Position numbers and translations under genes: made by a program. The notes beneath the pieces were generated by a model. The model ran no database searches. It saw nothing but the letters and a program-made list of their open reading frames with translations, and was not told where the DNA came from. A stretch of 64,000 nucleotides of DNA from positions 56,792,001 to 56,856,000 of the forward strand of contig NC_083285.1 in assembly GCF_963506605.1 (NCBI RefSeq). Direction: 5' to 3'. This stretch comes from Zootoca vivipara (taxonomy: Eukaryota). Positions 3,425 through 44,700 of this stretch are shown here, piece by piece (within the stretch, counting starts at the first letter, position 1; each line of letters begins with the position of its first letter).

Positions 3425-3466
<42 letters not shown>

Positions 3467-9400: not shown

Positions 9401-12400
9401 GTAAAGCGCCACCTAACGGCATACAGCAGAACTACTGCCTCATCTAATTCTAGTTTTGTGCTAGACTCTGCTCATGCAGGAAGCGGGCAAAACAAAAAAT
9501 CTGTTATCATACGAAATATATTTAATATATATTTTATTCTAATGGCATCTTGCGGACCCCTCTGGCATAGCTCGCGGACCCCTGGGGGTCCGCGGACCAC
9601 CTGTTGGGAACTACTGGCTTAGAGAACAGACCCCTAAAAAAAGCAATCACACTTGACCTGATTTATCACTGGCTTGTATTTCAGTCCTGGCTTGTTCAGG
9701 ATCATTTCCAGCTGCTTACGGGTGAAGTTAGACACTCCAATGGACCTCACCAAGCCAGCATCTTTGCACGCCTCCATTGCCTGGCAAAGAATAGACGGCA
9801 TGTTTGTTGAATGGTGTTTGTTGAATAGCTGAGGCCACACTTTATTCCCCCAGATTAAGATTGGAAGCTCACTCATTTATTCCCAAGGGTGTGCAATAAT
9901 TCACCTGCTCTCATAGGAGCCATTGTGTGAGTCATTGTTCTTGACATGTCTCCTCTGGTAGATCTGGTGCAGGTGCTCTGTATCTGAATGACTCAAGGGC
10001 TGGATTTGATTATCCCAGGCACATACCTCCCATGTCTGCCGAAGATCTACGTTGTCAATAATAAATTTTTTGTCTTCTCCAAAGGGAAATAAATCTGTTC
10101 CAGGCTGGAAAAGAAGGAGGGGGAGGGAATAAGTGCAGGCCAGGCCTAGAAGTTCTCTTATCTCTGTAATATTATCTAAGACTAATGGACAGGGATAGGA
10201 AACGGGAGTGATAGAAAACAGGAGTTCACCTTGCAGGGGCTGATACCACAGTGCAGGGATCTGTGGGAAACTCAAGTCGCAAGCCCAGGTCTGTCTCCCC
10301 ATCTCTACAACCCATTTTCTTCTTCCCTTGCTCCCTCGCCAAGTCCTGCTCTGGACACAATTTCTTATGATGCCTATGTGGTTAATGTAATCATTGTATG
10401 CAAAGGTTTTCATTAACTGGCATGTTTCTCCCCCAAAATCTGAGAGCCATCATTCTTTGATTAAGATATGATCTAGCAGAGAATTGTCAGCATCTCTAGG
10501 AAATGACAATTCCAAATGTTCCTTCAGGGAATCAAATATTTTAGCAGCCCCCCCTTCTCTCTCCCTCTCCCTCTCTCTCCCTCTTCAAATATTGTACTCA
10601 ATACTTGCGTTATGACATCAATAATTATTTACCTTCAAAGAATACGGATTGTGAATTATGAACAGATCCATGTAGTCAAACTGGAGTTTCTTCAGCGATT
10701 CTTCCAAGCATTTCCGAACCAGCTCAGGGCGGTGGAAGGTACTCCAGAGCTGCCAAAAATATATAGAGATTTATATTTTCACACAGCCATAGAGCTTTTG
10801 GATCTCAGGACAGTTTAGCTGTGGCAGGTGACTATTCTGGTGTGTATAGTGTTAAGGACACACTCAGATATTGTTCTGAGGAGTATTTTAAATTGCTGTG
10901 CTGAGGTAAAGCAATTTTAAAACAGTTATTACTAATAACCAAAAAATTTACCATTTATTTATTAAATTTATATATTGCCCTTCATCAAAAGATCTCAGTA
11001 TGATTCACAAGATAAATGCACAAGATAAAAGCACAAATAAATAGTCAGAACAGAAGCAACAAAACAGGAATCCCTCCTCCCACAAAAAGGCTGTAGAATA
11101 TTAACCAGCCCATGGCCTTGTTAAAGGGGAACATTTTCACCTGGCGCCTAGAGGTGTATAATGAACCTCCCTACAGAGAGCATTCCCCAAATGGGGAGCC
11201 ATGCAGAAAAGCCCCCGTTCTCATGTTCCCGCCGTCTGAGCCTCACATGGAGGAAGCACACAAAGAAGAGCCTCAGAGGATGAAAACAGAGTCCAGGTAG
11301 GTTCATATAGGGAGAGGCATTTCGCTCTGATTTTGTTAAATAATGTCTGTGAAATATGCAATTGCATCATGATACAGACACTATATTCTATACTTTAAAA
11401 TAAATAAATAAATACCAAACTCACTCACTTTTCCAGTGTAGAAAATGTCTTCCCTTTTTACTGTTCCATCTGAAATCTTCGCACGAATGGCCCGCCCAAC
11501 TTGCTCCTCGGTCTCGTATACATATGCGCCATCAATATGACGGAAGCCGACTTCTATTGCTATCTTTGTAGCCTCCTCACACTTACTTTTTTGAACCTAC
11601 CGGTTGAAAAAGTTAGTCATTGTCTCTGCTTCAATGGAGAAATTTATATCAAAGTAACACTGAGTGTTGGTGGACATTGTCAAACTAGACCTGAGTCCCA
11701 GGGACTAGGCACATCAAAGAAAAAGAAAGAAAAGGCATATAGAAAAAGTGATTTATATGCGTTATATGTGCGAAGTAACATTGCACCACCGAATGGCATG
11801 CAAGATTTAACATGAGTAATCAATTAAATTGCCAGTTATCATGGTTCAAACAGTGCAACACCATACAGTTTGTGGAATGCTCTTTTTAAAAATTGGTTTA
11901 AATGTTTGTGAAATAGGAGAGATATCCAAGAAGGGATTGAGAAAGTCTCTTTGTCAGCATGTATCTCTTTGTTTAAATAGATTCTACCCTCACTTTATAT
12001 GTGACTGGGGCAGACATATGAATTGGAAAAATGGAAAAAGGAAAATTCCGTTGAAAAACTGAGTGGTAGCTTTTATTTAGTAAATTCATGATGTTCCTAG
12101 AAATCAATTTAATTACAAAACAAGAATCGACACCAATCCCTTCATTTGCATTGCTGGTGATATGGACCAAATGAAGATGGTTTGGATACAGAATTGATTC
12201 TATATTTATTGTTAGTGTCCAGAATAGTTAGCTAATGCCTGGTGATTTTGGATAATATTGTTACTCCCAACAAACTAATGGGGGACACTTATAGTTCCAT
12301 AGAAAGATTTTTTTAAAATATCACTCGACATTTTGGATTGGGGACTTTGAACCCTGTAGCAGCAATTCACACTGGAAACTGTTTCTCAGCTACAAACCAT

Positions 12401-12752
12401 CCAAGTCTTGCACAAAACATTATTTGCTCCTGAATCTGCTCACTCAGGCCCTTGTTGAATGAAAAGCAGCACTTTATGTGCTGCAAAGCATCTGTTGCAT
12501 TCTTGGCTGTGGTGGCACAAGAAGTTCTCATGCACAATTGGCTTCTCAGATCAGGTGAGGTATCTCATGCTGTGCTTTGCGTTCTATGAAGCACCCAGCA
12601 GCTCCCAGGCATTTTGTTCCTCAAAAACAAGTTACCGTACTACAATCGTTAAATGTTTTACTTACAGCGTCCGGGGAATAGGTTCCAAACCCCAGTATGG
12701 GGATTTTGTTTCCATCATTCATTGTAATGCCACGGTCTTTGCTAAGTGCCAT
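946..12752 (-). CDS. Aldo-keto reductase family 1C-like gene, copy A (exons 1-8; exon 9 not in window)
   Basis: Exons 12666-12752, 11429-11596, 10633-10749, 10027-10104, 9658-9780, 7998-8107, 1690-1855, 946-1028 (87/168/117/78/123/110/166/83 nt, all GT-AG, open frame). Protein [25 protein letters not shown]...HIDGAYVY...FYTGKLW...IHNP...SIGVSNF...NQVECHPY... contains the AKR catalytic tetrad D/Y/K/H. Confidence 0.93.
2767..2975. mobile_element. Inverted pair of Penelope pseudo-LTR fragments
   Basis: 2767-2880 (minus) and 2881-2975 (plus) match the 3' end of the Penelope at 55010-55140. 13-bp TSD CGCTCTACTTTAG at 2754-2766 and 2976-2988. Confidence 0.85.
2881..2918 (+). ncRNA. Minimal type I hammerhead ribozyme motif (Penelope pLTR)
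   Basis: GTAT-CTGAAGA-A-GTGTGCATGCACAC-GAA-AGCT-C-ATAC: CUGANGA/GAAA core, helix II hairpin, palindromic helix III, stem I GUAU/AUAC. Confidence 0.75.
3428..3463. repeat. (CA)n microsatellite
   Basis: Direct reading. Confidence 0.95.
5031..5850 (+). mobile_element. Possible non-autonomous Helitron-like element containing an ~88-bp tandem repeat (about 5370-5560)
   Basis: Starts ATCTATATATATATAAA...; absent from the copy B intron; 3' end not clearly identified. Confidence 0.35.
6361..6713 (-). mobile_element. Sauria SINE flanked by a ~120-bp direct duplication
   Basis: Reverse complement of the SINE at 1998-4562. Flanks 6244-6360 and 6728-6848 are near-identical. Confidence 0.85.
7264..7705 (-). 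mobile_element. Solo LTR
   Basis: TG...CA ends; 5-bp TSD ATACG at 7259-7263 and 7706-7710; AATAAA on minus at about 7328-7333; empty site in copy B. Confidence 0.75.
8537..8672. mobile_element. hAT (URR1-like) MITE
   Basis: TIRs CAGGCTTTCTCAACCTC and GAGGTTGAGGAAGCCTG; TSD CTCTATAT/CTTTATAT. Confidence 0.8.
9136..9616. mobile_element. Non-autonomous hAT element
   Basis: TIRs CAGGGGTTCCCAACA and TGTTGGGAACTACTG; perfect 8-bp TSD GCTTAGAG; empty site in copy B (about 28098). Confidence 0.85.
10955..11320 (-). mobile_element. L2-like LINE 3' fragment (old, partly shared with copy B)
   Basis: Similar to the fragment at 37060-37435 (ATATTGCCCTTC...AGGAACATTTT...CCAGGTAGGTTCATAT). Confidence 0.5.
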
Positions 12753-21294: not shown

Positions 21295-24200
21295 TTATTC
21301 CACATCTGGTGGGTAATACTGTGGGTGACCAGCATATCTGAAACAAAAGAAAAGAGAGTCAACACCCCCAAAATTACATTTTGTCAGAAACTGGACTTTT
21401 TCAAGACTGTCTAGGATCAAATAGGACTGGGATAGCTCGGTCAGTAGAGGATGAAACTCTTAATCTCAGGGCCATGGCCACGCTGGGCAAAAGGTTCCTG
21501 CATTGCAGGGGGCTGGACTAGATGACCCCCGTGGTCCCTTCCAACTCTACAATTCTATGACATGGACACTTGTCCATACACTTGCACCCCACTCCAACCA
21601 TGCATGGGGCTTTGGAACAAAGGATCCACAGTAATTGCTTCTATAATTTCACCTTATTCTCTAGGAAGAGGAGATAGATGGATGCCAGATCTTTTCTTCC
21701 TTTTGCTCTCGCAGTTTGAATTCTTGCGTGAAGCACTTTTATGTGTTCATATGCATACTATTTAAATTTTACTTACGCGTCCCCTTTTAAATAGCTCATG
21801 CTTTTGTGAAGGCCATCAATGGATTTCATATCCTCCTCAGACAGCTGGAAAGTAAATGCCTGTCAGGAGGAGAGGGAAAAAAAATACGCTGAGGTGATTT
21901 TATCTCATGTCTTCTTTTTGCAGCTCAGAGCTATGCACCTCTTTCCAGCAAGAGAGATATCAAAGCGAACTTTGCTACCACCTTCCAAAGTTTATTTCCT
22001 TCATTCAACAGCTTCAGTCCAGATGTCCTCCCACTGAAGGAATTTTATATGCATAGTAATGTAGGTTTGCAATAGAACAGGAGTGGGGGAAACTGTGGCC
22101 CTCCAGATATGGATGGACTCCAACTCCCCATCAGTCTCCACCATCATGACCAATGGTCAGGGATGAGGGAAGTCACAACGCAGCAAATGTTGTTTAGTCC
22201 TTCAGTACTCACAGCTGTCCATGGAGGCGCAGGTCAATTCTGTGTCTAGGGCAGCTGTTTAGCAGCTCCATCTAGTATGCAGGCTGAAACCCTATCTGCC
22301 CGCAGACTGTCTGGCCAGACTGGTGCATGCTCTAGTTATCTCCTGCTTGGACTACTGCAAAGGGGCTACCTTTGAAGGTGACCCTGAAACTAAAACAAAT
22401 CCAGAATGTGGCAGCTAGACTGGTGACTGGGAGCGGCTGCCGAGATCATATAACACTGGTCCTGAAAGACCCACATAAGCTCCTAGTACGTTTCCGAGCA
22501 CAATTCAAAGTGTTGCTGCTGACCTTTAAAGCCTTAAACGGCCTCGGCCCAGTATACCTGAAGGAGCTTCTCTACCTCCATTGTTCTGTCCGGACACCGA
22601 GGTCCAGAGCCGAGGGCCTTCTGGTGGTTCCCTCCCTGCGAGAAATGAGGTTACAGGGAACCACGCAGAGTGCCTTCTTGATAGTGGCACCCACCCTGTG
22701 GAATGCCCTCCCATAAGATGTGAAGGAAATAAACAACTATCTGACTTTTAGAAGACATCTGAAGGCAGCCCTGTTTAGGGAAGTTTTTACTGTTTGATGT
22801 TTTATCGTGCTTTTAACATTCTTTTGGGAGCAACCCAGAGTAGCTGGGGAAACCCAGCCAGATGGAGGGCATATAAATAAATTTATTAATTATTATTATT
22901 ATTATTATTATTCCATGCAGTGTATAGCTAAACTACCGAACTTGCTCCCATGCGAGGCAGTGACAGCCAGCAAATTGGATGGCTTTAAACCAGGGGTAGG
23001 CAACCTAAGGCCCATGGGCTGGATGCGGCCCAATCGCCTTCTCAATCCGGCTCACGGACGGTCTGGGAATCAGCATGTTTTTACATGAGTAGAATGTGTC
23101 CTTTTATTTAAAATGCATCTCTGGGCTATTTGAGGGGCATAGGAATTCGTTCAATTTTTTTCCCCAAACTATAGTCCGCCCCCCCCCACAAGGTCTGAGG
23201 GACAGTGGACCGGCCCCCTGCTTAAAAAGTTTGCTGACCCCTGGGTTAGGCTGAGAGAATGTGAATGGACCACCAAGTTCACCCAGTGAGTTTCATGGCA
23301 GATTGGGGATTTGAACCCAGGTCCTAGTCCAACACTCTTAACTGCAAAACCCAACCATTAAGTGTAGCTGCAGGCTCCACTTAAATTTGAATCGAGTAAG
23401 ATAAACAGCGGTGGGGGGGGGGAGCTGAAGAAGCAGCTGGCAAAGTTTGTAGAGAAAGCGCAACATGGAAACTGCTTGTGCTTGCATGTTATACTCTTTG
23501 GGTGTCTTTAATCTTATTCCAGATTAGGAGTACGTGTACACACCCATGCTGTAGATTTTTGTGAGGCAGGTGGGATTCTGCCTGGCCAAACATGTTGCCT
23601 GGGCCTCAAATGAAAAAGGAGGAAATAACCTCCTTTTCTTACAAGGAGCAGCGGCAGCTTCTGTTTTGTAGAGGGCCATTTTATTTTAGTGAGGAAAAAG
23701 TGGAAAACGCCTTTGTTGGTTTGCTTGTTTTTCTTTCTTTTCCAGTGGTTTGAAGATAATCAGCTTCCTAAGGGTCAACTTAAAATGATGATGTTCTCGT
23801 GGGACAAAAAGACATAACGTGCTGGTGAATTTCTGGAAGCCAGCCTTGCAGTTCAGCCTGTGTTTTGTTTTCACTGTATTTCTTAGCAGAGGCTTAGCAT
23901 AGTTCAGCCTTTTCCATCCTGGTGTCCTCCTGATATTTTGGATGGCAGCTCCCATCAGCCCTGGGCACAAAACATCAGGAAGGACTCAGGTTGAAGGATG
24001 CTGGCGTAATGGCCAAGAGGATGAGCTTCGCACTAGGCAACCTCACCTCTACGGAGTACTTTTTTATTATCTGAGCTGCTTGGAGGTTTCCCACCTTTTA
24101 GGCCCTAGGAACCATTTTTTCCCTCACAAGCTTCTTCTGAGAGCTCTGAGCTATAGCTTCCTGCCAGTCAAGCCTTGCTGATTTGCTTCTCAGCCCCCGC

Positions 24201-27200
24201 AAGCCCTGCAGCATTACCTTTCAGGAGGTGTGCTTAGAAAGGTAACAAAGAGCTATTTCATCCCCAAGGGTGCTGGAGACTTGAAATGAAACCGCCATTT
24301 GACTCTGCAGCAAGCCACACACTCTCGACTGAGAACTGATGGATAGGCTGACACAAGCTTTCTCTCTTCCACCTCTTCCTTAGACTGAACCTGTTTCTGC
24401 TCCACCCCCCCCCCCAAAGGATTTTTGTTTCTGAAGTTTGTTTATTGTTTGTTGTTTGTTGTTGTTTTGACCATCATAGTCATATCAACCACCGGAAAAA
24501 AGAATATACATCCTTTACAGTATATACATAAATATAGCATTAAAACATACATTCGCACAAACGTGATACTAATAGTTTTTTTTATATTTCATTCCCAATT
24601 AAATCTTTACAGTCCACCACATTATCCTCAATTTTGGGGCAGCAACTGTGAACCTCACAAATTTGTCTTTCGCCACATCAGGCCTCTTGCTTAGCAAATC
24701 AAGGATAAACCTAGTTCTTGGTTCGGAATACAGAGAGCAATATAGTACATAATGTATAGATCTTCTGCTGCTTGGGTACCAAAAATTTTGGTACCGCCAA
24801 ATTTTCCTGTAGCATCCTTCTAAATCAGCAGTAGGCAACCTAAGGCCCGTGGGCCAGATGCGGCCCAATTGCCTTCTAAATCTGGCCCACGGACAGTCTT
24901 GGAATCAGCATGTGTTTACATGAGTAGAATGTGTGCTTTTCTTTAAAATGCATCTCTGGGTTATTTGTGGGGAACAGGAATTTGTTCATTTTTTATTTTC
25001 TAAATATAGTCCAGCCCACTACATGGTCTGAGGGACAGTGGACCGGCCCACGGCTGAAAAAGGTTTCTGAACCCTGCTTTAAACAATAAACAAATTCATG
25101 GTGGATAAGATGTTCATCTTCGCTCCCATAGCCCCACACCAGTTATGTGACCCGTGAGATCACAGTGTTCAAATGATGTGCTTTTTCAGTATTGTTTTTT
25201 AAAGAAGAAGAGGAGTTTGGATTTGATATCCCGCTTTATCACTACCTGGAGGAGTCTCAAAGCGGCTAACATTCTCCTTTCCCTTCCTCCCCCACAACAA
25301 ACACTCTGTGAGGTGAGTGGGGCTGAGAGACTTCAAAGAAGTGTGACCAGCCCAAGGTCATCCAACAGCTGCATGTGGAGGAGCGGAGACGCGAACCCGG
25401 TTCACCAGATTACGAGCCTACCACTCTTAACCACTACACCACACTGGCTCTCTAATGGATTTATATATACTGCTTTACCTGGATGTCTTCCTCAATTTGC
25501 TTTCTGGTGTCGGCCTTCACTAGGACCACCAGGCCGCGCTGCAGTTGGTAGCGAATAGCCACGAGAGCTGGGCTTTTGTTGTACTTCTTGGCGATCGCAA
25601 CCAACAAAGGGTCTTCAAGAAGGGGAGGAGCGTCTGGATTTAACCTGTTGGAGAGCAACAAGGAGAGAAAGTGTGTTTCTGGTGTCAAGATGCACAAATA
25701 TATACACACAACTATAGGATGGGGGGGCACTTGGGGACCCAACCTGTCCAGCAAAACAAACTTTTCAATCACAGGGGTACCTAAGAAGGGAAAGAAAGGC
25801 CCAAGGAATTCTGTGTGCCTGTTGGAGAGTCGATATGGAAAAGAGGGAGGGAATTCAAATGAAATGGAGGATCCTGGAAGAATACATAGCTCATTGTCTT
25901 GAAGGAGAACTCAGTATTTGTTGCTGGTCCCACTTGTAAAGAATAAGCATTTAAGTGGCTTCCAATACAGTGGTACCTCGACTTACGAAGGACTCGACAA
26001 CCGAATTGTTCAACTTATGAATCGGGCAAATGGCCGCACGCTTACGAATTACTCGACATCGGAACAGAAACCGTGGCGGTTTTAGACTTTTCGACTTAAG
26101 AATTTTTAAATGGGGTTGCTTCAACTTACGAATTTTTCCGTTTCCAATGCATTCCTATGGGAAATCGCGTTTCCAATGGCGCTTTTCGACTTACGAATTT
26201 TTTGACCTACGAAGGTGCCTTCGGAATGGATTAAATTTGTAAGTCGAGGCACCACTGTATAGATGAATGCAATACAATTCAAAATTCTGAGACACAAGAA
26301 ACAAGCTATGTAAAAAGAGAAATGCTATAATTATTCAAATGCAAGGCCGGGTGCAGAGTCCTTTCATCCTTGCCATTTTACTGCTTTAAGCTCCATGAAA
26401 CATTATATAAAAATGATTTAAAAACAGTACAAAATTTCAGAAGCAGAAATTATTAAATAGCCCCCTGGCCACAACATTTAAAAACATATGTTTGGGAGAA
26501 GTCAATCAGTTATATATAAAAAAACACTTTAGCAATGGAAAGGTTTCTGAGAATGTCTAAAATGGGAGGGGAAGAGCTTTGTAAATCTCTCTCTGGAATG
26601 AGTTCCCCAATAGTGGGGCCACTACAGAAAAGGTCCTGATGCTGGTATCCACCACGAGGATCTCTATTAATTGTGGGACCAAGAATGCAACCTTCAGAGC
26701 TGATGTGGATGCTGGGGAATAGTGGGCCTAGGTGGTCCCTGAGGTGGTCCCCAAATGTTTTGGCTTCATCTCTTACCATCTTGGGTCCCTTTGGGATCCT
26801 AGGACACTATATCCTTCAAGGACGATATTGTTTGACTTGCAGAAGGCCAGCAGCTTGCTTTGGTTCCTATAAGGATGGCATTCAACCTGCAGATTCAAAA
26901 TCCCCCAACACAGCCCAAAAGTGAGAATTCAGACGGAACAAAAATACCGTGAAATAAAAGAAAGAAAGAAAAGCAGAACCATGCTATTATTTTTTGAAAT
27001 ATCCAGCTGTTACCTTTTTAAAAGTATGTTGTGTTTTCTGATGTATCAGAATCTTTAGACGACCATTCTTGCATTTGTGGTTTCCATTGCCACGCTCCTC
27101 ATCCATGAAATGTGTGTTAGCTGAAGATGGGGGACAGGGCTTATTCCCCCACAATCTCTTGTCACCCCAGCCCTGTTGGAAATATCCTGGGCAGGCTGTC

Positions 27201-30200
27201 CTGCCCGCAGTGTCTCTATATCTGCCCACTCAGTCTCTGAATTTTCTATGTTGAGCAAAAAGGTCTGATTGGTTACATGATTTACACCAGTGGCCAAGTG
27301 AATCAGAGCTGCTTGGGTGGAACAGCTTTCCCCAGTTGCCTAACTCAAAAGCCCTTCGCTCCCCCCTTGAGAACTTCCAGAGTCCTCACAAGAGGCTGTG
27401 TGGGCTCTGACTGTTAGGATTCTTGCCCTGTGCTTGCAGTCATGGGATTGGTTTTATCACATGACGGTGTGGGAAGTGACGGAGACATGATGTTTCATAT
27501 TACTGTGTTCCGTGATGTAGGACTATTGTCCTTTGTTCTCTCTCTCTGCTGTTTGATGCTGAGTCAGAATGTTCTGAGTGTATTATATGTAAATAAAGTA
27601 GTTTAGCCAAAATGCTGCGCTGCTGAGTCTGTCACGCAAACTGCTAACACTCTGCTGTTCCTAAGCGTGCTGATTCCTCTTGGTATCTTGCCACTGTGAT
27701 GTTCGGGGTGGAGAAAGCTTTTGAAGATCCTGAACGACTGACCAGGAGGGAGAGAACATGCCAGTCGGGCATGTGTCTCTATCGGAGTCCTACTTGCATG
27801 TAGGATGATCCTGACACTGACTGCTTGCAAGCCTCCTTCTACCAGAGATGCCAGTTTCAAACATTATGGACTTCTCCACATTTCCTTTTGTCTGAGGATT
27901 CAGAGGTCTTGATGAAATGAGAACCCATTACTGGTTCCAGGAATTGAGGGGAGTCCACCCCACAACTCATAACCATATCTTCTTGTGACTGGATCTGCAA
28001 CCTTATAGACTTAAGCAAGTTTTTTCAGGGAATGGCTGTGTTCGTCAAAACAAAGGTCCTCTCACAAAAGAGCTTAAATAAAGAAGCTTTGAACAGTGCT
28101 TGGAACAAACCCCTAAACAAAGCAATCACACTTTACCTGATTTATCACTGGCTTGTATTTCAATCCTGGCTTGTTCAGGATCAATTCCAGCTGCTTACAG
28201 GTGAAGTTGGACACTCCAATGGACCTCACCAAGCCAGCATCTTTGCACGCCTCCATTGCCTGGCAAAGAAAACACGACAAGTTTGTTGAGTGGTGCTTGT
28301 TGAATAGCTGAAGGCACACTTTTTTTTTCCAGATTAAGATTGGAGGCTTATAGTTCACCAGCTCTCATAGGAGCCATTGTGTGAGTCATTGTTCTGGACA
28401 TGCCTCCACTGGTGGAAGGTTATTATGCTCTGTATCTGAATGAATGACTCAAGGGCTGGATTTGCTAATCCCAGGCACCTACCTCCCATGTCTTTTGAAG
28501 ATCTACAATGTCAATAATCAATTTCTTGTCTTCTCCCATGGGAAATAAATCTGATCCAGGCTGGAAAAGAAGGAGGCGGAGGGAATAAGTGCATTTCAGG
28601 CCTATGAGTTCACAAGCACCACATTTCACATTCTTGTTTATTCAAGAGGGATAAAGTGTTACTTTATCCAGGAAAAAATACTTACCGTATGTTGAAATAT
28701 TAGGTAAAGGACCCCTGAACAGTTAAGTCCAGTCAAAGGTGACTATGGGGTTACGACGCTCATCTCGCTTCCAGAACGAGAGAGCCTGCATTTGTCCTCA
28801 GACAGCTTTCTGGGTCATGTGGCCAGCATGACTAAACCACTTCTGGTGCAATGGAATACGATGACACACAGAGCACACGGAAACACCATTTACTTTCCCA
28901 CCACAGTGGTACCCATTTATCTGCTTGCATTGGCATGATTTCAAACTGCTAGGTTGTCAGAAGTTGGGACAGAGCAATGGGAGCTCACCCCATTGCAGGG
29001 ATTCGAACCACCAACCTTCTGATCGGCAAGCCCAAGAACCTCAGTGGTTAAGACTACATCTCCACCAGCAAACCCCCCCCCCTGTTTCAATATTAACTCA
29101 GTATTGTCTCTTTTAACTCAGGGGTGGGGAATTGGTGGATCTCCAGGCTTTGCTGGCCTCAAAGTCCCATCAGCTGCAGCCAGCAAGGACAATGATCAGG
29201 GATGATAGGAGTTGCAATTGAGCAACATCTGGAAGGCCACAGGTCCCCCATACATGCTTTATTTTTTTTCTGTGCCCCATAGAACAAACTGTCTTCTCTC
29301 TCTGCACAAGTCTGTCTCCCCATCTCTCAAACCCTTTTTTCCTTCCCTCGCTCCCTCGCCAAGTCCTGCTCTGCACATGATTTCTGTCTTATGATGCCCA
29401 TGTGGTTAAAGTAATCGCTATATGCAGATGTTTTCTTTAACTGGCATGGGTTCTTCTCCAAAATCTGGGAGCGATCATTCTTTGATTGAGATACGGTCTA
29501 GTAGAGAACTGTCAGCATCTCTAGGAAATGACAATTCCCAATGTTCCTTCAGGGAATCAAATATTTTAGCAGCCTCTCTCTCTCTCTTCAAATATTGTAC
29601 TCAATACTTGCATTATGACATCAATAATTCTTTACCTTCATAGAATACGGATTGTGAATTATGAACAGATCCATGTAGTCAAACTGGAGTTTCTTCAGCG
29701 ATTCTTCCAAGCATTTCCGAACCAGCTCCGGGCGGTGGAAGGTACTCCAGAGCTGTCAAAAATATATAGAGATTTATATTTTCACACAGCCATAGAGTTT
29801 TTGGATCTCAGGACAGTTTAGCTGTGGCAGATGACTATTCTGGTGTGCACAGTGTTAAGGGCAAACTCAAATATTGTTCTGAATAGTATTTTGAATTGCT
29901 GTGATGAGGTAAAGCAATTTTAAAGTCATCATTGCTAATAAACAGTATATTTTTTACCATTTATTTATTAAATTTATATATTGCCCTTCATCAAAAGATC
30001 TTGGAGGAGTTCATAAGATAAAAGCACAAGATAAAAGAACAAATAGTGAAAACAGAAGCAACAACACAGGAATCCTTCCTCCCAACAACCAGTGGCGTAG
30101 GAAGCCACACGGGCGCCTGGGGTGGCGTGCCCATGTGCGGGGCGAGCCACCCCTAGGGGCGAGGTGAGGTTGGGGCCTCCAGAGTCTGTCAGTCTCCTCC

Positions 30201-31487
30201 CACTCAGCTGCCCTACAGCTGGGGGGGGGGGAGCAGAGGGCAGACCGTTTGGGCAGCGAGGAGCCTGTGCGCGCCCAAGCCAGCACGTCACTCCCAGGAG
30301 AGATGTGTGGCTCGGGCGTGCTGAAGGCCCCATGGTGATTGCCGCCCGGCATTTTGTCACCCCTGTCACTGGTGACATCCGGGGCGGACCTCTGGAATGA
30401 ATTAAGTACAGAACCAGAGGTACCACTGTATTCAGTTTTTTTAAAAAATGCCAAACTCACTCACTTTTCCAGTGTAGAAAATATCTTCCCTTTTTATTGT
30501 TCCATCTGAAATCTTCGCACGAACGGCCCGCCCAACGTGCTCCTCTGTCTGGTATACATAAGCGCTATCAATATGCCGGAAGCCCAATTCTATTGCTATC
30601 TTTGCAGCCTCCTCACACGTACTTTTGGGAACCTGCCGAATGAAAAGGCGAAAAGGTTAGTCAAGGTCTCTGCTTCAGTGGGGGAATTAATATCAAAGGG
30701 TACCGCTGAGTAACACTGAGTGTCGGTGGACATTTTCAAACTAGACCTGAGTCCCAGGGACTCAGCTAGGCTCCATCTAGACGCATCAAATGAAAAGAAA
30801 GAAGAAGTGTAAAGAAAAAGCGATTTATATGTGTTGCATGTGCAATATAACATTGTGCCACCAGATGGCGAAACGGAGTCCTGTTTTCCTCTACCCGTTT
30901 TCCCTGTTTAAATTTACAACGCTTTGAACAAAAATGCTTCTTTGATGTGTCTAGATCCAGCCCTGCTGATGCCTGAGTCCTCTTGTGGGGTCTCTTTCAT
31001 GAGGCAAGGTGGCGTTGACCAGCCATGACAACAAGGCTCCAATCAAGGTTGCGAGGTGGTGAGTTGTCATTTTAATTTTCCATAATCCCTCCACCAGCAC
31101 ACACCAAGGCACTGTGGGAAATTAAAACGGGTGCTTCCAGATAGCTGCCAGGTGGGGAACAGGATGAAATCTTATTTTGCATTCATGGTATGTACATGTA
31201 TGAGAAATAGCAATTTCTGAGTGTTTGACCCCAAAATGCCAGATTTATTCATGGATTTATGAATGGTCAGGCAAAGAGAGACAATTTTTAGGACTTTTAA
31301 GATCACATCAAAGTCAGCAGAGTTATTGCAACCCCATATAACACATGCATCTCTATGGAGAGGACTAATTAATCAGTGAACCTATTATATACGCACAGTA
31401 CCTTACCGTTTCGTAGCTGACAATACAATAATATGTACTCCAGGGTTTGGTTTGGCTTTTATGTCATGTTGATGGTGTTATGTTATA

Positions 31488-31573
<86 letters not shown>

Positions 31574-33495
31574 CTGCATATGTAGAGACAGGGGATGGAT
31601 CAGGAAAATTCAGATTAGCCTGGGAAACAGCAGGCTTTTATTGACTGCAGGTCAGCACCAGATTTAAGGGGGTATGGGTGGGTCTACACATGGGATGCAA
31701 AGTCAAGGGGGCGCACATTAATGGTGATGTTGGTTATACCTATATTTATTTGGGTACCTACTGAGAAGATCCATAAAAAAACTGTACCAAAAGGAATTAT
31801 TGTGAAAAAATGAAATATTTAATGGTGTGTGTGTGAAATTTTGATGTAGGTGGCGTTTCGGCTCTATGCCTGATTTCCTTCTAACCCCAGGCTCCAACAA
31901 GAATCCAATTGCTGGAATAGGTATGCAGGTCTCTTGGCAATGACCACTTAAGTATGAGAGGTTAAGGTAATAAACGAAGCAGCTCTGTGCCAGAGGGCAA
32001 ATGGGTGGGTAGTTAGAAAGTCAAAAACTAGGGTGTGTGTATGAGAGAGAGCCAGGAGTTGGAAGCAGAAAGCAGGCTGGGCAGCTGAGAGATGGAGCCA
32101 GGCCTGGTTTCTGCTGCAATCCAAGGTTATGGCCATGGGAGAAGCAAGTTAATGCTGTGAACCCCTCCATCCTTCTTGCTGGCAGCTGTCTGTCTCTAGA
32201 GACAATGGAGTGTGCCTCCGGGGGAAAGTCAAACTGCTGTGTTAGCAGCACCAAAGTCACTTCCCTAGGGCGCAAGTCTGGGCAGTGGGTATGGAGGTCC
32301 TGGGCTGCCCAGATGAAAAGGCCTCCCTCTCATGTTTGCTGATGTGATCCAAAGGAAAGCAGAGTAATATATTTGGCACCAGCTTGGCTGCAGGAGTTGC
32401 CAGAAGGAGGCATGCAATGCGTCACCCAACCATCTTAGGAATGCCACCCTGAAGATATCCCACAAGGCAGCTGAGGTTCAAGAGCAGAGTTTTCCTTCTC
32501 CTAGATAGGCTACCTCCCAGGGCCGGCTCTACATAGACCCCCGGTGGCGCAGCGCACCACGGCGGGGGGCTGGTAAGGTGGGCGCCGGCCTGGCAAGGAG
32601 GGCGCCGCGCGCGCGGAAACCAATTGCGCACTGCGAGGGCGGGGCGGGCGGCGGAGCGATCTCCACCCCTCAGCACCAGGGCGCGCGATCTGCTCAAGAC
32701 GGCCCTGCTACCTCCCTAGCTGGATGAGCCCCATCCGCCCTTCATTTCCCTCTACAGCCCGTACAGAAACCGCCTTCTTGACCGTTGGATCCACTAGTAA
32801 GCTCATCTGTTCTATCTGCCAGAGCCTCTCTTCACATGCAGGATTGAAAATGAGCAATCAATTAACTTGTCAGTTATTTTGGTTCAATCAGTGGAACTCT
32901 GTTGAGACATAAAGTTTGTAGAATGCTCTTTTGAAAAATTGGTTAAAATGTTTGTGAAATAGGAGAAATATCCAAGAAAGGATGGAGAAAGTTTCTTTGT
33001 CAGCCTGTATCTCTTTGTTACTCCCAACAAAACTAATAAGGGGCACTTATAGTTCTATAGAAATATTTTTTAAAATATCACTCGACATTTTGCATTGGGG
33101 ACTTTGAACCCTGTAGCAGCAATTCACGCTGGAAACTGTTTCTCAGCTACAAACCATCCAAGTCTTGCAGAAAACAAGCCCCTTGTTGAATGTGAAGCAT
33201 CAACTAGGCAGAGGGCCTTCTTGGTGGTGGCGCCTGCCCTGTGGAACGCCCTCCCAACAGAAGTCAAAAAGGAAAACAATTACCAGACTACTCTGTTGCA
33301 TTCTTGGCAGCTGTGCTTTGCAACTGTATGAAGCACCCAGCAGTTGACAGGCATTTTGCTCTTCAAAACCAAGTTACTAAAATTGTGAGAGTTAAATGTT
33401 TTACTTACAGTGTCCGGGGTATAGGTTCCAAACCCCAATACGGGGATTTTGTTCCCATCATTCATTGTAATGCCACGGTCTTTGCTAAGTGCCAT
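21295..33495 (-). CDS. Aldo-keto reductase family 1C-like gene, copy B (complete, 324 aa)
   Basis: Exons 33409-33495, 30465-30632, 29636-29752, 28483-28560, 28137-28259, 26777-26886, 25479-25644, 21777-21859, 21295-21337. Total 975 nt, no stops, ends ...[13 protein letters not shown]. Close paralogue of copy A with alignable introns. Confidence 0.94.
21424..21560 (+). mobile_element. tRNA-derived SINE with CR1-type tail
   Basis: GGGATAGCTCGGTCAGTAGAG...CTCTTAATCTCAGGG head; GGTCCCTTCCAACTCTACAATTCTATGA tail. Related copies near 34400-34540 and 59195-59340. Confidence 0.65.
22200..22885 (+). mobile_element. L2 LINE 3' fragment
   Basis: Translation [10 protein letters not shown]...DHITLVL...[19 protein letters not shown]...WNALP; ends GGGCATATAAATAAAT(TAT)n; absent from copy A. 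Confidence 0.8.
22991..25076. mobile_element. Composite unit: two direct hAT MITE copies (22991-23243, 24826-25076) enclosing 1.6 kb of cargo
   Basis: Single 8-bp TSD CTTTAAAC at 22983-22990 and 25077-25084. Copy A has the uninterrupted site (about 1433-1440). Confidence 0.8.
25203..25452 (-). mobile_element. Squam3-like tRNA-derived SINE
   Basis: Minus-strand head GAGAGCCAGTGTGGTGTAGTGGTTAAGAG; (CTT)n tail; absent from copy A. Confidence 0.7.
25968..26257. mobile_element. Tc1/mariner (Tigger-like) MITE
   Basis: TIR CAGTGGTACCTCGACTTAC; TA TSD; empty site in copy A (about 4924). Confidence 0.85.
27412..27816 (+). mobile_element. Solo LTR
   Basis: TGTTAGGA...TCCTGACA ends; 5-bp TSD CTGAC; internal AATAAA at about 27592; empty site in copy A (about 8847). 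Confidence 0.85.
28700..29055 (-). mobile_element. Sauria SINE (diverged)
   Basis: GGTAAAGGACCCCTG...GGGATTCGAACC...CAGTGGTTTA. Confidence 0.75.
30090..30430. mobile_element. GC-rich non-autonomous DNA-transposon fragment joined to a mariner-type TIR end
   Basis: Starts CAGTGGCGTAGG; ends GAGGTACCACTGTA; absent from copy A. Confidence 0.5.
31490..31568. repeat. (CA)n(GA)n compound microsatellite
   Basis: Direct reading. Confidence 0.95.
32518..32707. mobile_element. GC-rich hAT-like MITE
   Basis: TIR CAGGGCCG/CGGCCCTG; 8-bp TSD CTACCTCC. Confidence 0.8.
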
Positions 33496-35737: not shown

Positions 35738-38700
35738 TTATTCATCTCCGAATGTATAGTTAGGATGGGAAGCAAATCTGAAAAATAAAAATAATTGGAG
35801 CTTCTAAATTACAAGGAGAAAGAAAGGGTGAGATTCAGGCCTCAGAAGGAATATCCAACACATTTAAAGCACATGAAGCCTAGCCACTGGAATTTACCCT
35901 CGGAGAACTACAATTCCCTTAACAAACTATCTCAGGATTGTCATCCTTGGCCCACCCACCACAATTTGCTTGCCTTAGGCAAATTGCAAGATGGCGCACA
36001 TTTCATATACAGAAGCTAGCTGTGACAACCAAAACTTACTTCTAGATTGGCAGCAACATAGTGCCCTTCACCAAACCCAAGTGTCCTTCACCACAACTGA
36101 GGGCAGCAGCAGGCTAGTTATGTGGGTGCAGGACAGCCGTGCATAGCTGCCAAGTTTTCCCTTTTCTCACGAGGAAGCCTATTCAGCATAATGGAAAATC
36201 CCTTTAAAAAAGGGATAACTTGGCAGCTATGCAGCCGTGTGATGTACACAGCTCTGTCCTCCAACACAAGGGGACGGGCAGGGTACTCAGAAGTATCAGC
36301 TGGGGAGGGGGCTGGCCTGGAGGGTGCTTCCACACTGGGCATTTGAATGTGGAATTTACTCTCTTTTCCCTGTGGAAAGTGAGGAGAAAACTGGTTGATG
36401 CACCAGCAGAAGCACACATTACCTAACAGTAGGGCCGGCCCTGGTTCTGTCTCAATAGGGGATGTGTACTTAGGCCCTTAGTCTTTAGTAGCAGAAAGGG
36501 GAAATTACAGTGTGCCATCTCTGAGTTGTTTTAACTGGCATACCAGAGTAAGCCACATGGGAGACCTTTTGGTTTGGAGGGCAATCGTTTTTGAAATGTG
36601 TTGGGTGTAATAAATTGCTTCTTTCGAGTACCAGTCTGATGTCTTGCCCCTTGTGTGCAGCTTGTGTGTGTGTGTCCCCTCCCACTTCCCCCCCCACCAA
36701 ATTGTCAGGGGTTCTACCACACCCTCCCCAATGCAACAAGGAACGAGGAGTGCTCTGGCTGCAACCACAAACACCTGATTCCCACCAGGAGCTGCCTCCA
36801 CACGTGAGCTCTCAAATGGCCACCTGTATCACTGTGTGACAATATGGATGGGGCTGAACTCTAACAACAGATTCCCTTGCCTTGCCACCTTCAACTCACC
36901 CTGTCAGTTTCATGTAGCGAACATTTCTTTTGAGGCCATTGAGTGTTTTCATATCCTCTTCAGGCAGCTGGAAATCAAACACCTAGCAGAGGAGACAGGG
37001 TTGCATATAATCAGCAAGGGCTTTATTATCATTAATTATTATTATTATTACTATTATTATTTCAATTTATATACCGCCCTGTACCTGGAGGTCTCAGAGC
37101 GGTTCACAAACAAGACCATAACATATAAAATCAAACCAAAAACAATAACCCAATAACCCCTCCCCCCAAAAAGCCACATTCTAAAAGGGTGTTGGATGTC
37201 AATAAGATCAACCAAAGGCCTGGTTAAAAAGGAACATTTTTGCCTGGTGCCTAAAGGTGTATAATGAAGGTGCCAGGCAAACTTCCCTGGGGGGAGTATT
37301 CCATAGACGGGGAGTCACTGCGGAGAAGGCCCGTTCTCGTGTTGCCACCCTCCGGACCTCTCAAGGAAGACGCACACAAAGAAAGGCCTCAGAAGATGAT
37401 CTCGGGGTCCAGGTAGGTTCATATGAAAAGAGGCTCTAGATTTTCTGAAGCTCAAGCACTGAGACAAAGTGGGCAGAAAGAGGAGACATTGGCTCCCCTA
37501 TCCTGCAGAATCTCTCACTGATCTCACCTGCATTTTCATTCTGTTGTAGATGTCAATGGCTCCCATTCAACTCAGCTTACGCAGTTGAGCTCCTGTGAGT
37601 AAGATGGACCCTGTCTTCACTATTGCTTACCCCACAACTTAACTCTGACAGTCTGTGTTCCTTATGCGGTAGGTTATTCTACTTAAAGTGCAGGGATGAA
37701 CGAACACTCAGCTCCCAAGGCCTCGCCTAAACCAGTACACATTAGACTTTGGTTCACTGCATCTGCATACTGCCGGTTTACCTGGAGGTTTTCTTTAATG
37801 TGTTTTCTGGTGAAACTCTTGGCCAGAACCACCATGCCACGCTGCAACTGGTAGCGCAAGGCAATGAGCGCTGGGCTTCGGTTGTGCTTCTTAGCAAGGT
37901 CAACCAGTACTGGTTCCTCACGCAGAACTGGTGTGCTTGTGTCCATCCTGCAAGTGGAAAGCAACCTCAGGTGTCATTAAATAGCAATATTGTGACATAT
38001 TCAAGTCAACATTTGAGCATATCTATACACTGTAAGTATGAAGCTGTTTTAGACCAGATCATCTGGTATGGAGGAACCCAACCAAAGAACCCTGCAAGGG
38101 TGCAGAGGGCAGGGAAAGCAGACCAAAAGCACAATCTTATGCTCATCAGTCTTACTGGCCATACAGTCGTACCTCGGGGTGCGAACACCTCGGGTTACGA
38201 ACAACCCGGGTTACGAACTTCGCAAACCTGGAAGTATTTTCGCCGCACGCCTTTGCGCATGCGCAAAGTGCGAAAATAGCGCTTTGCGCATGCGCAAAAC
38301 GGCGGTTCGGGCCCTTTTTGGGTTATGAACTTTTCGGGTTACGAACTGCGACCCGGAACGGATCACGTTCGTAACCCGAGGTACCACTGTATTCATATAC
38401 TGATAAACCATGGTTTGTTGTGATGGGACTGAGCCTAGCCTCCCTCTGAACTCATATGCTCCTTTCCTCCTTTGGTGCAGCTGCAAGGAGTTTAGAAGCG
38501 AATCCCGGAGGGATTTAGTCCGCACTGCTTAAAATGGTTGGGTCTGGTAGACAAAATTGCAAACAGAAATGTGTGCATTAGCAGAAATGCACACTAAAGT
38601 GCTGTCAAATTTTCATGAGAACTTAAAATAAAAAAAGTTTGCAAACTTTAAATTTGATGTGGAATGATGCGGAAACTGGAACTTAAGAAAAAGGAGAAAC

Positions 38701-41700
38701 CCAAATTGTCAGATTCATCTACGCCTGTTAAGCACACATTCCTTTCTCCTAATTTCTGTATGGCTTTGACTAGGTGCTGCTTTGGTGCCCCTTCCCCGAT
38801 CCCATACTTGCTATCTTGGATCAGATATTCTTCCTGGTTTTGATGGTGCACTTTTTCTCCTTCCTCTCTGATCCTTAATTGCTACACTAGAACAAGCATG
38901 GGGAACCTCTGGCTGAGCTGCTACTGGCCATCATCCCTGACCATTGTGCATGCTTGCTGCAGCTGTCGGGAATTGTAACTCAGCCACATCTTCAGGGCCA
39001 ATTGTTGGTTAATTATTGGCTAATCATTGAAATACTGGAATAAATGATCAAAGTTCTCCTACCAAGCCTCGTCTCTCTGTGATCCTAAAGCAGAGAAAGC
39101 TTCCAGGACAATATCCTTTGATTTGCAGAAAGACAGCAGCTTGGCTTGCTTGAGATAAGGGTGGCATTCGACCTGGTGGAGAATTTGTGCACAAGCCAAG
39201 AGTAAGAAGCACGGTCTAGAGGAGCAGTCTTTACAGTCTTGTTACAAAATAACAAAAATAAATTGGTTCTCGAACACAGAGCATTATGAATGGGCATGAA
39301 CATCTGGAATGGAATTTTTGAACAGAGCTCCATGTGGATACACTGTGGCCAGGATTCCTGCATGATCAGGGCCCTCAGTTATTGTGAATTCAGAACCCAC
39401 ACCCCCACTTTCCACTGATGCAATCTCACTCCCCTTTGTTCAGTGATTTATTTATTTTTAAAGTCTTTTACCTCCTTTTGGAAGAACAGCGTTTGCATTC
39501 TATCACTGTGTGAGCAGGGAGAAAACTAGCCTTGTCCTCTGGTGTCTAAACAGACAGAATGAAGATTTCCATGTAATGTGGATCCCTGCTCATTTGGGTT
39601 TCCAGATTGCATGGGAGCCTTCAGGCATATAGATGCGCCTGCAAAGGCTTCCTCCTGGCAGACATTCATGTTGTATGAGGAAATGTCACCGCACATTTCG
39701 CTAGCTAAAATGCAAGGTGCCAGGGAAAGAGCTAGCCAACACAGTCCTGCTCCTCATTCTAACATCGATAAAATATATGAGCCATTATTCTGAATATATC
39801 TCCTGTTGTCAGACAATCTCCCCCCGAATGTAATTCAGACAGGGAGCAAAAAGCAAGTTAATATTGTTGCACCAATCTCTGAACATTGAGATGTTTTTGG
39901 GGTTCCAATGTGTGCTTCGGGGGTTCATTTCCTTTGAATGAGGTCACTGGAGATTTGCGGAGTTTCTCTAATGTGGAGGTTTACTTACACATCATATAGA
40001 GGCTGAGCATAAGAGGGAAGATTGAGATTCCTGGATTGCAGGATACCCTTTCACACAGAGAGATACTTTTATGACAGCATCTCCACCCAGGGAAGGGGCA
40101 AGAATAAACTTGCTCTCTTTTGATCAGTGGCGGAGCTACATGCTCCAGCACCGGGAGCGGAGAACAGGCAGGGCCATGGCTGGCATGCGTCCCAGGGGCG
40201 TGGTGTGCATCCCGGGGGCTGCGCGGTGCGTGTCCTGGGGGCAGCCACGATGGCACCCTGCCAAGGATGGCACCCGGGGCAGGCCGCTCCCCCCCACACC
40301 CTTCATTTGTCAGTGCTTTTGATCCCCTTCTAGAAGTATCGACAACAATGGTTCCCAATTTGCTAATTACTGAGGACCCCCTAATTATTATTATTAAATT
40401 TTTTTAAAAAAAAAACCCTCAGGACCCTCTACTTTTGAAAAATTTGATAACTATGGTGGTTGCTTCTGCAAAGCATTTTTTTTAACAAAAAGCAAAGGAT
40501 TTTAGGTATACTAAAAAAACAGACCAGGGCTGAGCGATATCTGCTTTTCAACATCGTGATATTCTGATATATCCCAATGTCTGAAATTGGAGATCAGGCG
40601 TGGGGATGAGGGAAGGAGCAGCTGCGGAAATCGGATGGGTGGGGGGAGGAGGCAAAGTTTTGGCAGCCAGCGAAGACGCACATCCACTGTGGCTGCTGCT
40701 GCTGCTTTCCTGCTGACTGAGAAAAGCTGCTCTGCCTCGGTGCCAGGGGAAGGTAGTGCTACGGTGCCTTGAAATCGGCTGCCCTGCTCTGCCTCGCGTG
40801 AGGAGTGGTATATTGCTGCGGATTGCTGGGCCAGAATCATTATCGCAGTGTGATTTTGGCCAATCTCACAGCGCTAAAACAGACCATAAAATTTGTGATA
40901 TTCCCATGCAAAAAAATTAGTGGGGGGGGAGGCAAGGGATGGGGCTGCACACCCCCTGGGTGTATTCCGTGGACCCCTAATTAGGAACCACTGATCTACA
41001 ACTAATATGGTGACGTATTGACTCTGACTTACTTTACAAAAGTGCACAAACCTGGCCAGGGCTACTACTGACTTAACAAAGGACCTGCTCTGGCAGCCCC
41101 TTTTCACAGAGGGTCACAGAGTTGGAGGGAACTCTCAAAACCCATTTAGTTTAGCCTCAATCACAGAACAATACAAGCTATGGGGGATGAATGGATGGGT
41201 TTTCCTGGTCATGTCATGGACCAATGAGCATTTATTCAGGAAAGCCAGTGTGGTAGAGTGACGGATAGAATATCACAAATGGATTGGGAAAACCTGGCTT
41301 CAAACTCTGGCCATAAAACTGTCTGAGCCAGTCACTACCGTTCAGCCAAAACTACGACACTGGGCATGTTGTGAGGCTAAAATAGAGAAGCCCCTGGGTA
41401 GGCTGCCCTTAGGTTTTTGGAGGAGGGCTGGAATACAAATGTGACAGACAGATCAATACTCAAGATATTTCCTCCACACTCACTATTTTGTGGGAGGGAT
41501 TCAGTTGCATACCAGAAAGTTTAGGGTTGTGCTATGAAAGTGAATTTAAGCGCTCCAGTGCAACAAATAATTTTTTTAATGCAGTTTGGAAAGTGAAGAG
41601 GAAATGCACTAAAAGAAGTATGGGATAATGATCAATTGAAAGGAAGACATATAACCACTGTGCAGGCAAATCAGAATGAATTCTCACTATCATATAGCCT

Positions 41701-44700
41701 CCCTGCAAAGTAGAAGGAATGCTCAGTAATGAGTGAACATCATATAACCTCAATGCAAGCTTCCTTGTGAAAGCAAATCAGAATAAATGCTCAATAAACA
41801 AGTCATCTGGAGGATCCCAGAATTATACCTGGTTGAGAACAGGCTTGTACTTGAAGCCAGGTTTGTTCAGGATCTTTTCCAGAAGCCTCTGGTTGAAGTT
41901 GGAGACACCAATAGACTTCACCAAACCTGCATCTTTACATAATTCCATGGCCTGCAGAAGATGATGAAAGTATATAAACAAAGCAGGCTGTGTAAATTAT
42001 GCTGCTGAAATAAGTGTACAGTTTTGATTTGGGGGATTGTCCTGCTGTTGCTACACAACAGTGATGATACACACCTCCCAGGTTTGACACAAGTCAATGT
42101 CATCGAAGACCAGCTTTCCACTTTCATCTTTTGGTAGCGGATCGGCTCCTGGCTTTAAAATAATAAAAACAAAAACAAAATTTTACTCAACATAGAAACA
42201 ACAGCACCAAAAACCTATTAAAATATTTTACGTCCCATCTTTCCCCTTAATGCCTTTGAGATGGCATACAATTTTGAGCTTAGGATGATAACTATAAATA
42301 TTAGCATTAGGGCTAGACTTAACTATGCTCAGAGACCCATTGAAAGCAATGGGACTTAAGCTAGTCATTAATTTGACTCTAAGCATGACTGCTATTGCAT
42401 ACACAGTTACCTGGGAGTAAGTTGCATCAAACTCAGTGATACTTATTTCTGAGTAGACATCTGCTGGTTTGTGATGTCAGTCTGGAAACAACCCGTTATC
42501 AGGAAACAATTGTAAAAGCAGATTAAACAAAATGAAAGCTTTGACTTTTTTTTACATTTAGTTGATTATGATTATTACATTTGCAAACAAGGTTAAGATA
42601 TGTTTCCAGATGTAGATTATTTTATATGTCCTCCCCCCCTTGTGGTCCAAATGGGGCTTGTCCTGCCTGCAATTTCTAATTGGTGAGGGAATGCAACTTA
42701 TCACATATTTACGGTAAATACACTCCTCTGTTATTACAGTTATACTTCAGTGCACACTTATGACTTCATTGATCAGAGTTAGACAGAGAACCAAATTAAC
42801 TCTATTGCGATTGTTGTTACTTTTACAGTTACTAGCTCTAACTAGAGTACTGTGAGGGGTAACATTTTTCCTCTTGCACTGCAGTCTCAATGAAAATCCT
42901 ACTCTAGGTTGCTATTACTCAGAGTGGTCTTGCTCCCATTGGTACCAGTGGGAGTTCCCTCCATCCCTCAAGTTCAGTTCCCATATATCCAGCTAAAAAA
43001 GGTTTTGGTAACAGGACTTAAAGAAAGTTTTTTTAAAAAAGCCTCTGAGATTTTGGAGAACTGCTCCCCATCAGAGGAGACAACATTAGCCACTTGATAA
43101 AACAGTTGTCATGTGATCCAACTTCATCTCTACACTAAAACTTTTCCTTTTAAAGACAGCGGTCATGGGTAGGTAAATACCCTACTTATTTTTCCTTGAT
43201 TTTGAGAACATCTAAAGTGTGAAGGATAGTTGCATACGATTCAAAACTTTGCTCCCAGCATTTGAAACAGTATTGGCATCATCTCTCTCTCTCTCTCTCC
43301 CTCTCCCTCTCTCTATGTCTCTGTGTTAGTCATCTTCGGAGATCAACATGGGTATGTTTCTGATCAAAACAATTAATGTGTACGCTTAACAGTAAATCCA
43401 TCTTAATATATAGTTCTTCTTTTAAGATAAGAATTTTACAAGAAAGGAAAGTTTGGTTTTGGTTCATCAACTAGTGAGGGGGCGCACGAATTACCTTGAG
43501 AGGAAATGGCATGTGAATAAGAAAGAGATCCATATAATCAAGTTTAAGTTTCTTTAGAGATTCTTCCACACTTGTCTGGACAAGTTCTGGGCGATGAAAG
43601 GTGCCCCAAAGCTGTAAAGGGTTTCAAACAACAGAACATGGATACAGTTCACCTTCAGAATGAATGGTTCTTACTGAAGCATATAGACACACTCCAATTA
43701 ATTTCAATGGCCATTGTGTCAGATAAATTTCTGCCTATCCGTATGACTGTTATCATAGCTTCTTTTTCACAAAGGTTGTATCTTCCCAGGTAGAGTTAAA
43801 ACTAAATGAGCATACATCATGTGCTATTGGTTTATTGCCTCAAAAGAAAGGACCCTGGGTGTTTCGTTTTCCAGGTGTAAAATTATATGTGACTAAATTA
43901 TTAAGAGAATGCACTGAGGTTTTTTTTCCATATAGGTAGGGGACCAGTCAGTTGCAGTTTCCATAGTCTAACTTTCCTATAAAGAGAACATTCTTAAAAC
44001 AATGGCTTTCAAACTGGGTTCTGAGACACCTTGGCTTCGCTGGAAACTTAACAGGTGCACTTCCAGACTGCCAATATATTGTGGTTACAGGTAGGTAGCC
44101 GTGTTGGTCTGATGCAGTTGAAACAAAATTAAAAAAAATTCCTTCCAGCAGCACCTTAGAGACCAACTAAGTTTGTCATTGGTATGAGGGTGGGATATAT
44201 TGTGGGTGGGAATCAAGCACATGCCAGAACTTTGCAAACAATTATCAGTAGTATCCAAGGCAACACGTATGAGCAAGTACAACAATGCAATAATACAATG
44301 TCAAATATCAACTCTTTATGAAATCTATACAATCATAAACGAAACGAAATATATAAAATATGAACTCTCTTCAAAACCAAATAAACAGAAATCTTATAAT
44401 TCTCCGAAAGTCTCGAAATATAAACTCTTAATGGATTCTCTTCAAAACATAGAACCAAATAAGCAGAAGTCTTATAAGTCTCTGAAAGTCTCTGAAGACT
44501 ATGTAAGTCTTTGAAGGAAGCAATATATCAGATTCTTATCTGGTGCAAACGAGCTGTAAAACTTTGTTTTATGGCGTCCAACGCTGCTGAAGTAGTCCAC
44601 AAACATAACCCACTGTTTCGTAATTCTTCAGCACATAACTTTATGACCACTGATATTTTCATACATATTCATTCACAAAACGAAGCATTATAATATCCTG

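Follow-up and report, generated by a model that had tools for sequence, protein, structure and literature searches.

Aldo-keto reductases (AKRs) of the AKR1C subfamily, for which the membership threshold is over 60% identity and a nine-exon gene layout is typical, include several NAD-preferring enzymes, namely rat AKR1C17, mouse AKR1C12 and AKR1C13, and the rabbit morphine 6-dehydrogenase AKR1C26. The NAD-preferring rodent members are substituted at positions 270/276. Studies of AKR1C9 by Ratnam in 1999 and by Papari-Zareei in 2006 reportedly name R276 in their titles as the anchor of NADP(H) and as a control of reaction direction.

Cofactor selectivity has also been examined in the xylose reductases of the AKR2B group. 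In the yeast enzyme, the 2'-phosphate is held by N272 and R276 and the adenine by E279/N280 (PMC6261992), and K270, S271, N272, and R276 have been picked for mutagenesis as phosphate contacts (PMC2213684). With Asp at 272, K(NADPH) went from 3 to 17 uM in Candida tenuis N276D and from 1.6 to 24 uM in Pichia stipitis N272D; these single 272 mutants showed a partial shift with mixed use (Rsel 0.23 and 0.84), and R276H took kcat(NADPH) from 10.5 to 0.3 per s, a drop of about 35-fold (PMC3334502). The double change K274R-N276D in C. tenuis shifted the preference about 170-fold (PMC2315639). A modelling paper has reported that loss of the arginine abolishes adenine stacking (PMC6337131). No description of the biochemistry of reptile AKR1C clusters was found in the literature searched.

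Structure and classification of gene B

The window, i.e., the whole stretch of 64,000 nucleotides of Zootoca vivipara DNA that was analysed, holds three genes, A, B, and C, on the minus strand. Gene B has nine coding exons running from 33495 to 21295 (minus strand), with GT-AG introns and without an internal stop, and these exons match the Zootoca vivipara RefSeq model XP_034982592.2 (P0071). In exon order, the coding bases number 87, 168, 117, 78, 123, 110, 166, 83, and 43. Exon 1 (33409..33495) begins with the ATG at 33495, and the coding part of exon 9 (21295..21337) closes with the stop TAA; both agree with the RefSeq model. Exon 2 (30465..30632) has AG/GT ends and carries D50 and Y55, with the K84 codon at its end, and exon 3 (29636..29752) carries the catalytic H117. 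Exon 4 lies at 28483..28560 and exon 8 at 21777..21859. Exon 5 (28137..28259) holds S166, N167, and Q190, which we take to form the nicotinamide pocket, exon 6 (26777..26886) holds Y216, S217, L219, and S221, and exon 7 (25479..25644) contains the cofactor loop and helix. The translations of A, B, and C all have the complete catalytic tetrad D50/Y55/K84/H117, as the first-pass annotation of this DNA had stated, and in B it was also located by alignment column. The alignment further shows that B retains all the residues named for exons 5 and 6 as well as A253, L268, and E279.

B belongs to the AKR superfamily and, within it, to the AKR1C-like group. Its translation scores 191 bits against PF00248 (curated cut-off 24), and its best structural matches are AKR1C enzymes. 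Identity is 62–64% to human AKR1C3 and the rabbit enzymes and 50% to AKR1D1, and the exon layout conforms to that of AKR1C. An AlphaFold model built from an alignment (pLDDT 92) predicts an (alpha/beta)8 barrel with a TM of 0.94 and an rmsd of 1.2 to AKR1C3. Reptile AKR1Cs branch apart from the mammalian ones in the tree, and B has no one-to-one orthology with AKR1C3 or rabbit 20alpha-HSD.

The cofactor pocket of B

The peptides that had been placed near the end of exon 7 were located in the window for all three genes, at 25523-25485 in B, 1734-1696 in A, and 37826-37788 in C (minus strand throughout). Residues are numbered as in AKR1C from an alignment to human and rabbit AKR1C chains of solved structures, and this numbering supports the earlier placement of the B changes in the 2'-phosphate/adenine pocket. 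B keeps K270 (codon AAG, 25515..25517) and carries A271 (GCC, 25512..25514), D272 (GAC, 25509..25511), Q276 (CAA, 25497..25499), and D280 (GAC, 25485..25487). At these four positions the A-type genes have T, Y, R, and N, so that gene A keeps K, T, R, and N as first noted, and its motif is K-T-Y-R-N. The first-pass annotation had listed the changes in B as S271A, Y272D, R276Q, and N280D. The last three hold; the first reads T271A when B is set against its own sister genes, serine being the residue of most AKR1Cs. The codon changes are ACC to GCC (271), TAC to GAC (272), CGA to CAA (276), and AAT to GAC (280). Set against A5, its closest exon 7 relative, B differs in this exon at five amino acids, namely 271, 272, 276, 280, and one other, and at four silent codons. 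The net charge of segment 270–280, counted from the sequences, is +2 in A, -1 in B, and -3 in Podarcis.

Of the NADP(H)-type pocket residues (K270, S/T271, R276, N280), K270 alone is retained in B. Human AKR1C3 and rabbit 20alpha-HSD share with B the fold, the tetrad, the nicotinamide-pocket residues, and K270 at roughly 62–64% identity, but have S271, Y/F272, R276, and N280 where B has A, D, Q, and D. The NAD-preferring AKR1C dehydrogenases are duplicated copies marked by the absence of R276, and B, with Q276, shares this loss. These mammalian enzymes have E276, with or without a changed K270, whereas B combines K270 with a neutral Q276, has acids at 272 and 280, and lies on a separate branch. 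The rabbit protein named morphine-6-dehydrogenase (P0218), presumably AKR1C26, is K270/E276, with its acid at 276 and with S271, F272, and N280 kept. Judged by its residues, B most likely works like the NAD-preferring rodent and rabbit AKR1Cs by means of a different residue set. The engineered xylose reductases (P. stipitis N272D, R276H, and K270S/S271G/N272P/R276F; C. tenuis K274R-N276D) are altered at the same positions as B, including Asp at 272, and the K270-S271-x272-R276-E279-N280 spacing is common to both, the equivalence being drawn from motif spacing and not from alignment. Unlike B, they are laboratory mutants of a fungal enzyme with Asn as the wild-type residue 272, and the mutants listed leave 280 unchanged.

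Conservation and origin of the pocket changes

The motif K-A-D-Q-D is present in five species of three genera: Zootoca vivipara (in two assembly versions), Lacerta agilis, Podarcis muralis, P. raffonei, and P. lilfordi. Conservation of A-D-Q-D in other lacertids, which the first-pass annotation had set as a check, is thus found in L. agilis and three Podarcis, and in both genera the motif apparently occurs in two paralogues each. A private sequencing error was rejected as the source of a state seen in five species and two Zootoca assemblies. Exon 7 is present in 57 of the 59 lacertid records examined; 20 of the 57 show K-A-D-Q-D in full, the other 37 show K-T-Y-R-N, and no intermediate state occurs. 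The records are redundant in that different isoforms and different versions are among them, some resemble mosaics of adjacent genes, and the set covers 15 of the 40 members of the largest cluster. In a comparison of 9 B rows with 13 A rows, chosen by us from these records with the B group defined by the motif, 112 of 324 positions vary and fixed differences occur only at 271/272/276/280; residues 273–275 and 277–279 are not diagnostic between the groups. The four fixed sites show co-inheritance and are not four independent tests, because the group is motif-defined and the codons are linked within 30 bases. A site-clustering P of 4.7e-7, obtained post hoc with a contact set drawn in part from general background on AKR1C enzymes, is not relied on. 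R276 is invariant in the 13 A rows and in 12 outgroup rows. The dN/dS of B against A copies is 0.39–0.60 (dS 0.11–0.17), similar to the 0.50 of A against A5.

Of the 106 AKR1C-like proteins in the alignment, 9 have A271, 9 have D272, and 9 have D280, in every case lacertid B-types. In a wider comparison of 159 AKR domains, taken from the 150 best representatives of the family, an acid at 272 occurs in none, Q276 in 3, D280 in 5, and H276 in 29. On these counts, D272 in the B-types is more than chance. A search scored on residues 250–300 returned 15 proteins from 20 candidates, 14 from lacertids and 1 from a gecko. The sequence and literature searches turned up no further instance in which a retained K270 accompanies acids at 272 and 280.

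In a tree of 60 rows, 8 B rows form a clade (96/95) nested in the lacertid A-types, which places the origin of the four residues inside the lacertid A/B expansion. When the four columns were removed, the B clade was not recovered, yet it was not rejected (p-AU 0.39), and this loss fits gene conversion or mosaic models. A grouping of B with Tiliqua P0062 (Q270/Q276) and Elgaria P0117 (N272/Q276) was rejected (p-AU 4.7e-5) in a topology test for which the last 324 residues of Tiliqua P0062 were taken; in the 60-row tree the Tiliqua row was 33% filled. The changes at residue 276 in the skink Tiliqua and the alligator lizard Elgaria are therefore separate from that of B. Lagomorph E276 proteins, one of them named morphine-6-dehydrogenase, are placed among mammals. 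The tree and the topology test thus set B apart from similar changes in other lineages, which bears out the independent origin proposed for the pocket changes.

Single changed paralogues were also seen in other reptiles: Elgaria P0117 (N272 and Q276), Tiliqua P0062 (Q270 and Q276), Pogona P0124 (H276 and I280), and Gopherus P0045 (H276). The distribution of these residues suggests repeated cofactor-pocket changes in reptile AKR1C clusters, and points to such changes having been independent. No description of a cofactor change in a lizard AKR1C was found in the literature searched, which was chiefly that outside subscription journals.

Expression evidence

In one contig set, the A-type exon 7–8 junction has a depth of 3321, and the exact junction common to B and A5 a depth of 87. 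Three raw RNA runs, about 6% of each being read, gave a depth of 0.4 to 4 in the exon 7 bin, with one junction read in each of two runs, too few to separate B from A5. A high-copy repeat at 25290-25455 of the window, immediately downstream of exon 7 of B, takes most of the RNA reads there. In the femoral-gland proteome of L. agilis, an A-type group is at rank 28 (PMC9000839). Another group, which takes its name from two B-type Podarcis entries, stands at rank 92 of 667, with 9 peptides, 5 of them unique, and 34 spectra. Among 14 candidate peptides derived here for that group, 1 is B-specific in the L. agilis models and 13 are also present in L. agilis A-type models, so the group is a lead and not proof. 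Expression of gene B specifically is only suggested.

Cofactor use and rival explanations

We consider B to be an intact lacertid AKR1C-like paralogue that has likely given up its selectivity for NADPH and uses NAD(H) for the most part, and from its sequence and the analogies above we give this reading a probability of roughly 0.6. The loss of NADPH selectivity, taken by itself, is very probable by analogy, because an acid at 272, the loss of R276, and the loss of the hydroxyl at 271 are combined in one protein. With R276Q, the guanidinium group, which otherwise forms a salt bridge to the 2'-phosphate and a stacking contact with adenine, would be lost, and T271A would abolish a hydroxyl contact with the phosphate. 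In Y272D, a carboxylate next to the phosphate site would repel NADP(H) and could bond the ribose 2'-OH of NAD(H). N280D would change an adenine contact; it is the least predictable of the four and may loosen the binding of both cofactors. The analogy has its limits in that the mutants were made in a distantly related enzyme, of the AKR2B group, and that B retains K270. Of the cofactor switch first proposed for the cluster, the pocket sites, the conservation, the intact gene, and the separate origin hold up, and the picture of a single A copy does not.

Because cytosolic NAD is mostly oxidised, B would carry out NAD+-linked oxidation and serve as a hydroxysteroid/alcohol dehydrogenase beside NADPH-reducing A copies. 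This direction, for which cellular NAD+/NADH ratios are the basis (PMC4290723), may apply to B and follows only if the preference for NAD(H) is strong. Its candidate substrates most likely belong to the lipophilic compounds, steroids among them. A fuller version, in which B is a fully NAD+-linked lacertid AKR1C dehydrogenase reached by a non-mammalian route, paired with NADPH-using sisters, possibly acting in femoral-gland signal chemistry, and with the loss of R276 repeated in other lizard families, is put forward tentatively and is somewhat doubtful.

B could instead be a relaxed dual-cofactor enzyme that binds NADPH more weakly, releases it faster, turns over at a higher rate, and is still mainly a reductase in cells. 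The retained K270 fits such an enzyme, N280D would weaken both cofactors, and in xylose reductase a change at 272 alone costs the enzyme its selectivity but does not fully reverse it; kcat(NADPH) of C. tenuis N276D rose from 13 to 37 per s (PMC3334502). In B, however, R276 and the 271 hydroxyl are lost together with the gain of an acid at 272, and the preference of xylose reductase was reversed by changes made in pairs (PMC2213684, PMC2315639), so we regard a mainly reductive, dual-cofactor B as rather unlikely. That the pocket was rebuilt for a different adenine nucleotide, after the pattern of mouse RECON (AKR1C13), or that B has become a binding or structural protein, is distinctly improbable. 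RECON, which has an AKR1C fold like B and holds other adenine nucleotides in its pocket, is described in PMC5954220 as a cytosolic sensor (CDN sensor) of bacterial cyclic dinucleotides. AKR1C13 has been solved with c-di-AMP and cAAG, the predicted model of B matches it with a Z of 47.7 and an rmsd of 1.1 over 314 residues, and a more acidic, phosphate-free pocket would be common to both. That fold match is common to all AKR1Cs, though, the tetrad and the nicotinamide pocket are conserved in B, and RECON, at 54% identity to B, is the only one of the two for which cyclic dinucleotide binding is known.

Decay, neutral drift, or assembly error is a further rival explanation of the four changes. 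R276Q is a CpG transition (CGA to CAA), the cluster is unstable, with a 2-base loss in exon 8 of one copy, and expression points to B itself only by suggestion. Against this, the same four-residue state is found across the five species and both Zootoca assemblies, the reading frame and splice sites are intact, and dN/dS is below 1. Private errors or decay, which the first-pass annotation had named as grounds for dropping its proposal, are on account of this conservation and dN/dS very improbable.

A mainly NAD(H)-dependent B would mean that the lacertid route parallels the changes made by protein engineers in xylose reductase, and that B and its sister copies may form an oxidase/reductase pair. 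A and B are a natural enzyme pair, about 87% identical, with fixed differences limited to four cofactor-pocket residues; what governs the choice between NADP and NAD, and the direction of the reaction, in AKR1C enzymes is therefore directly testable with 16 mutant combinations. The residue set of B is also a suggestion for engineering NADH-using AKRs. The case of B is real, conserved, and easily testable, yet it holds no new principle. Cofactor-switched AKR1Cs are already known in mammals.

The surrounding gene cluster

The genes of the window belong to a more extensive tandem AKR cluster. When exon 7 was used to search the genome, eight matches were obtained: B, five A-type genes, C, and one gene 6 Mb away that we read from its sequence as AKR1D1-like. 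The five A-type genes are all K-T-Y-R-N, and with B they make the setting that of a single altered copy among conventional ones. Gene A lies inside the window and the other four to its left. The earlier picture of A beside B is right in that both are present and falls short in that the A-type copies number five, not one. Exons 1–8 of gene A occupy 946..12752 (minus strand), with exon 7 at 1855-1690, and exon 9 falls outside the window, about 1.15 kb to its left. In A4, another A-type gene, exon 8 lacks 2 bases (G000:C10:56735335-56735253, locus L014), and exons 1–7 are equal to those of A3; A4 is either a very recent duplicate or an assembly duplicate. There is also an orphan A-type exon 1 (G000:C10:56774554-56774652, locus L010), with no later exons found before exon 1 of the next gene.

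Gene C has nine exons at 35738..48704 (minus strand), with exon 7 at 37947-37782 and the motif K-S-F-H-N. With a dS of 1.8 to B, it is an older and more distant paralogue. The first-pass annotation had listed R276H in C alongside the changes in B, and H276 is indeed present. It also occurs in the Podarcis, Lacerta, and Rhineura orthologues and in a turtle lineage, and is therefore an old state, common in AKRs (29 of the 159 wider domains), that was rejected as part of the switch in B. The RefSeq model of gene C (P0194) ends at 228 aa after exon 6, although 48704-35738 (minus strand) holds nine exons, and this is probably a shortfall of annotation.

Other features were noted in and near the window. 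A degraded AKR exon 5-like fragment lies at 51837-51946 on the plus strand, opposite to the genes. Long open frames at 15125-16855 (plus), 53462-54850 (plus), and 19383-17327 (minus) have, by eye from their translations, the look of LINE-type reverse transcriptase. At 9–25 kb to the right of the window (loci L020-L022), a further AKR gene is found on the same strand, AKR1B/AKR1E-like by eye.
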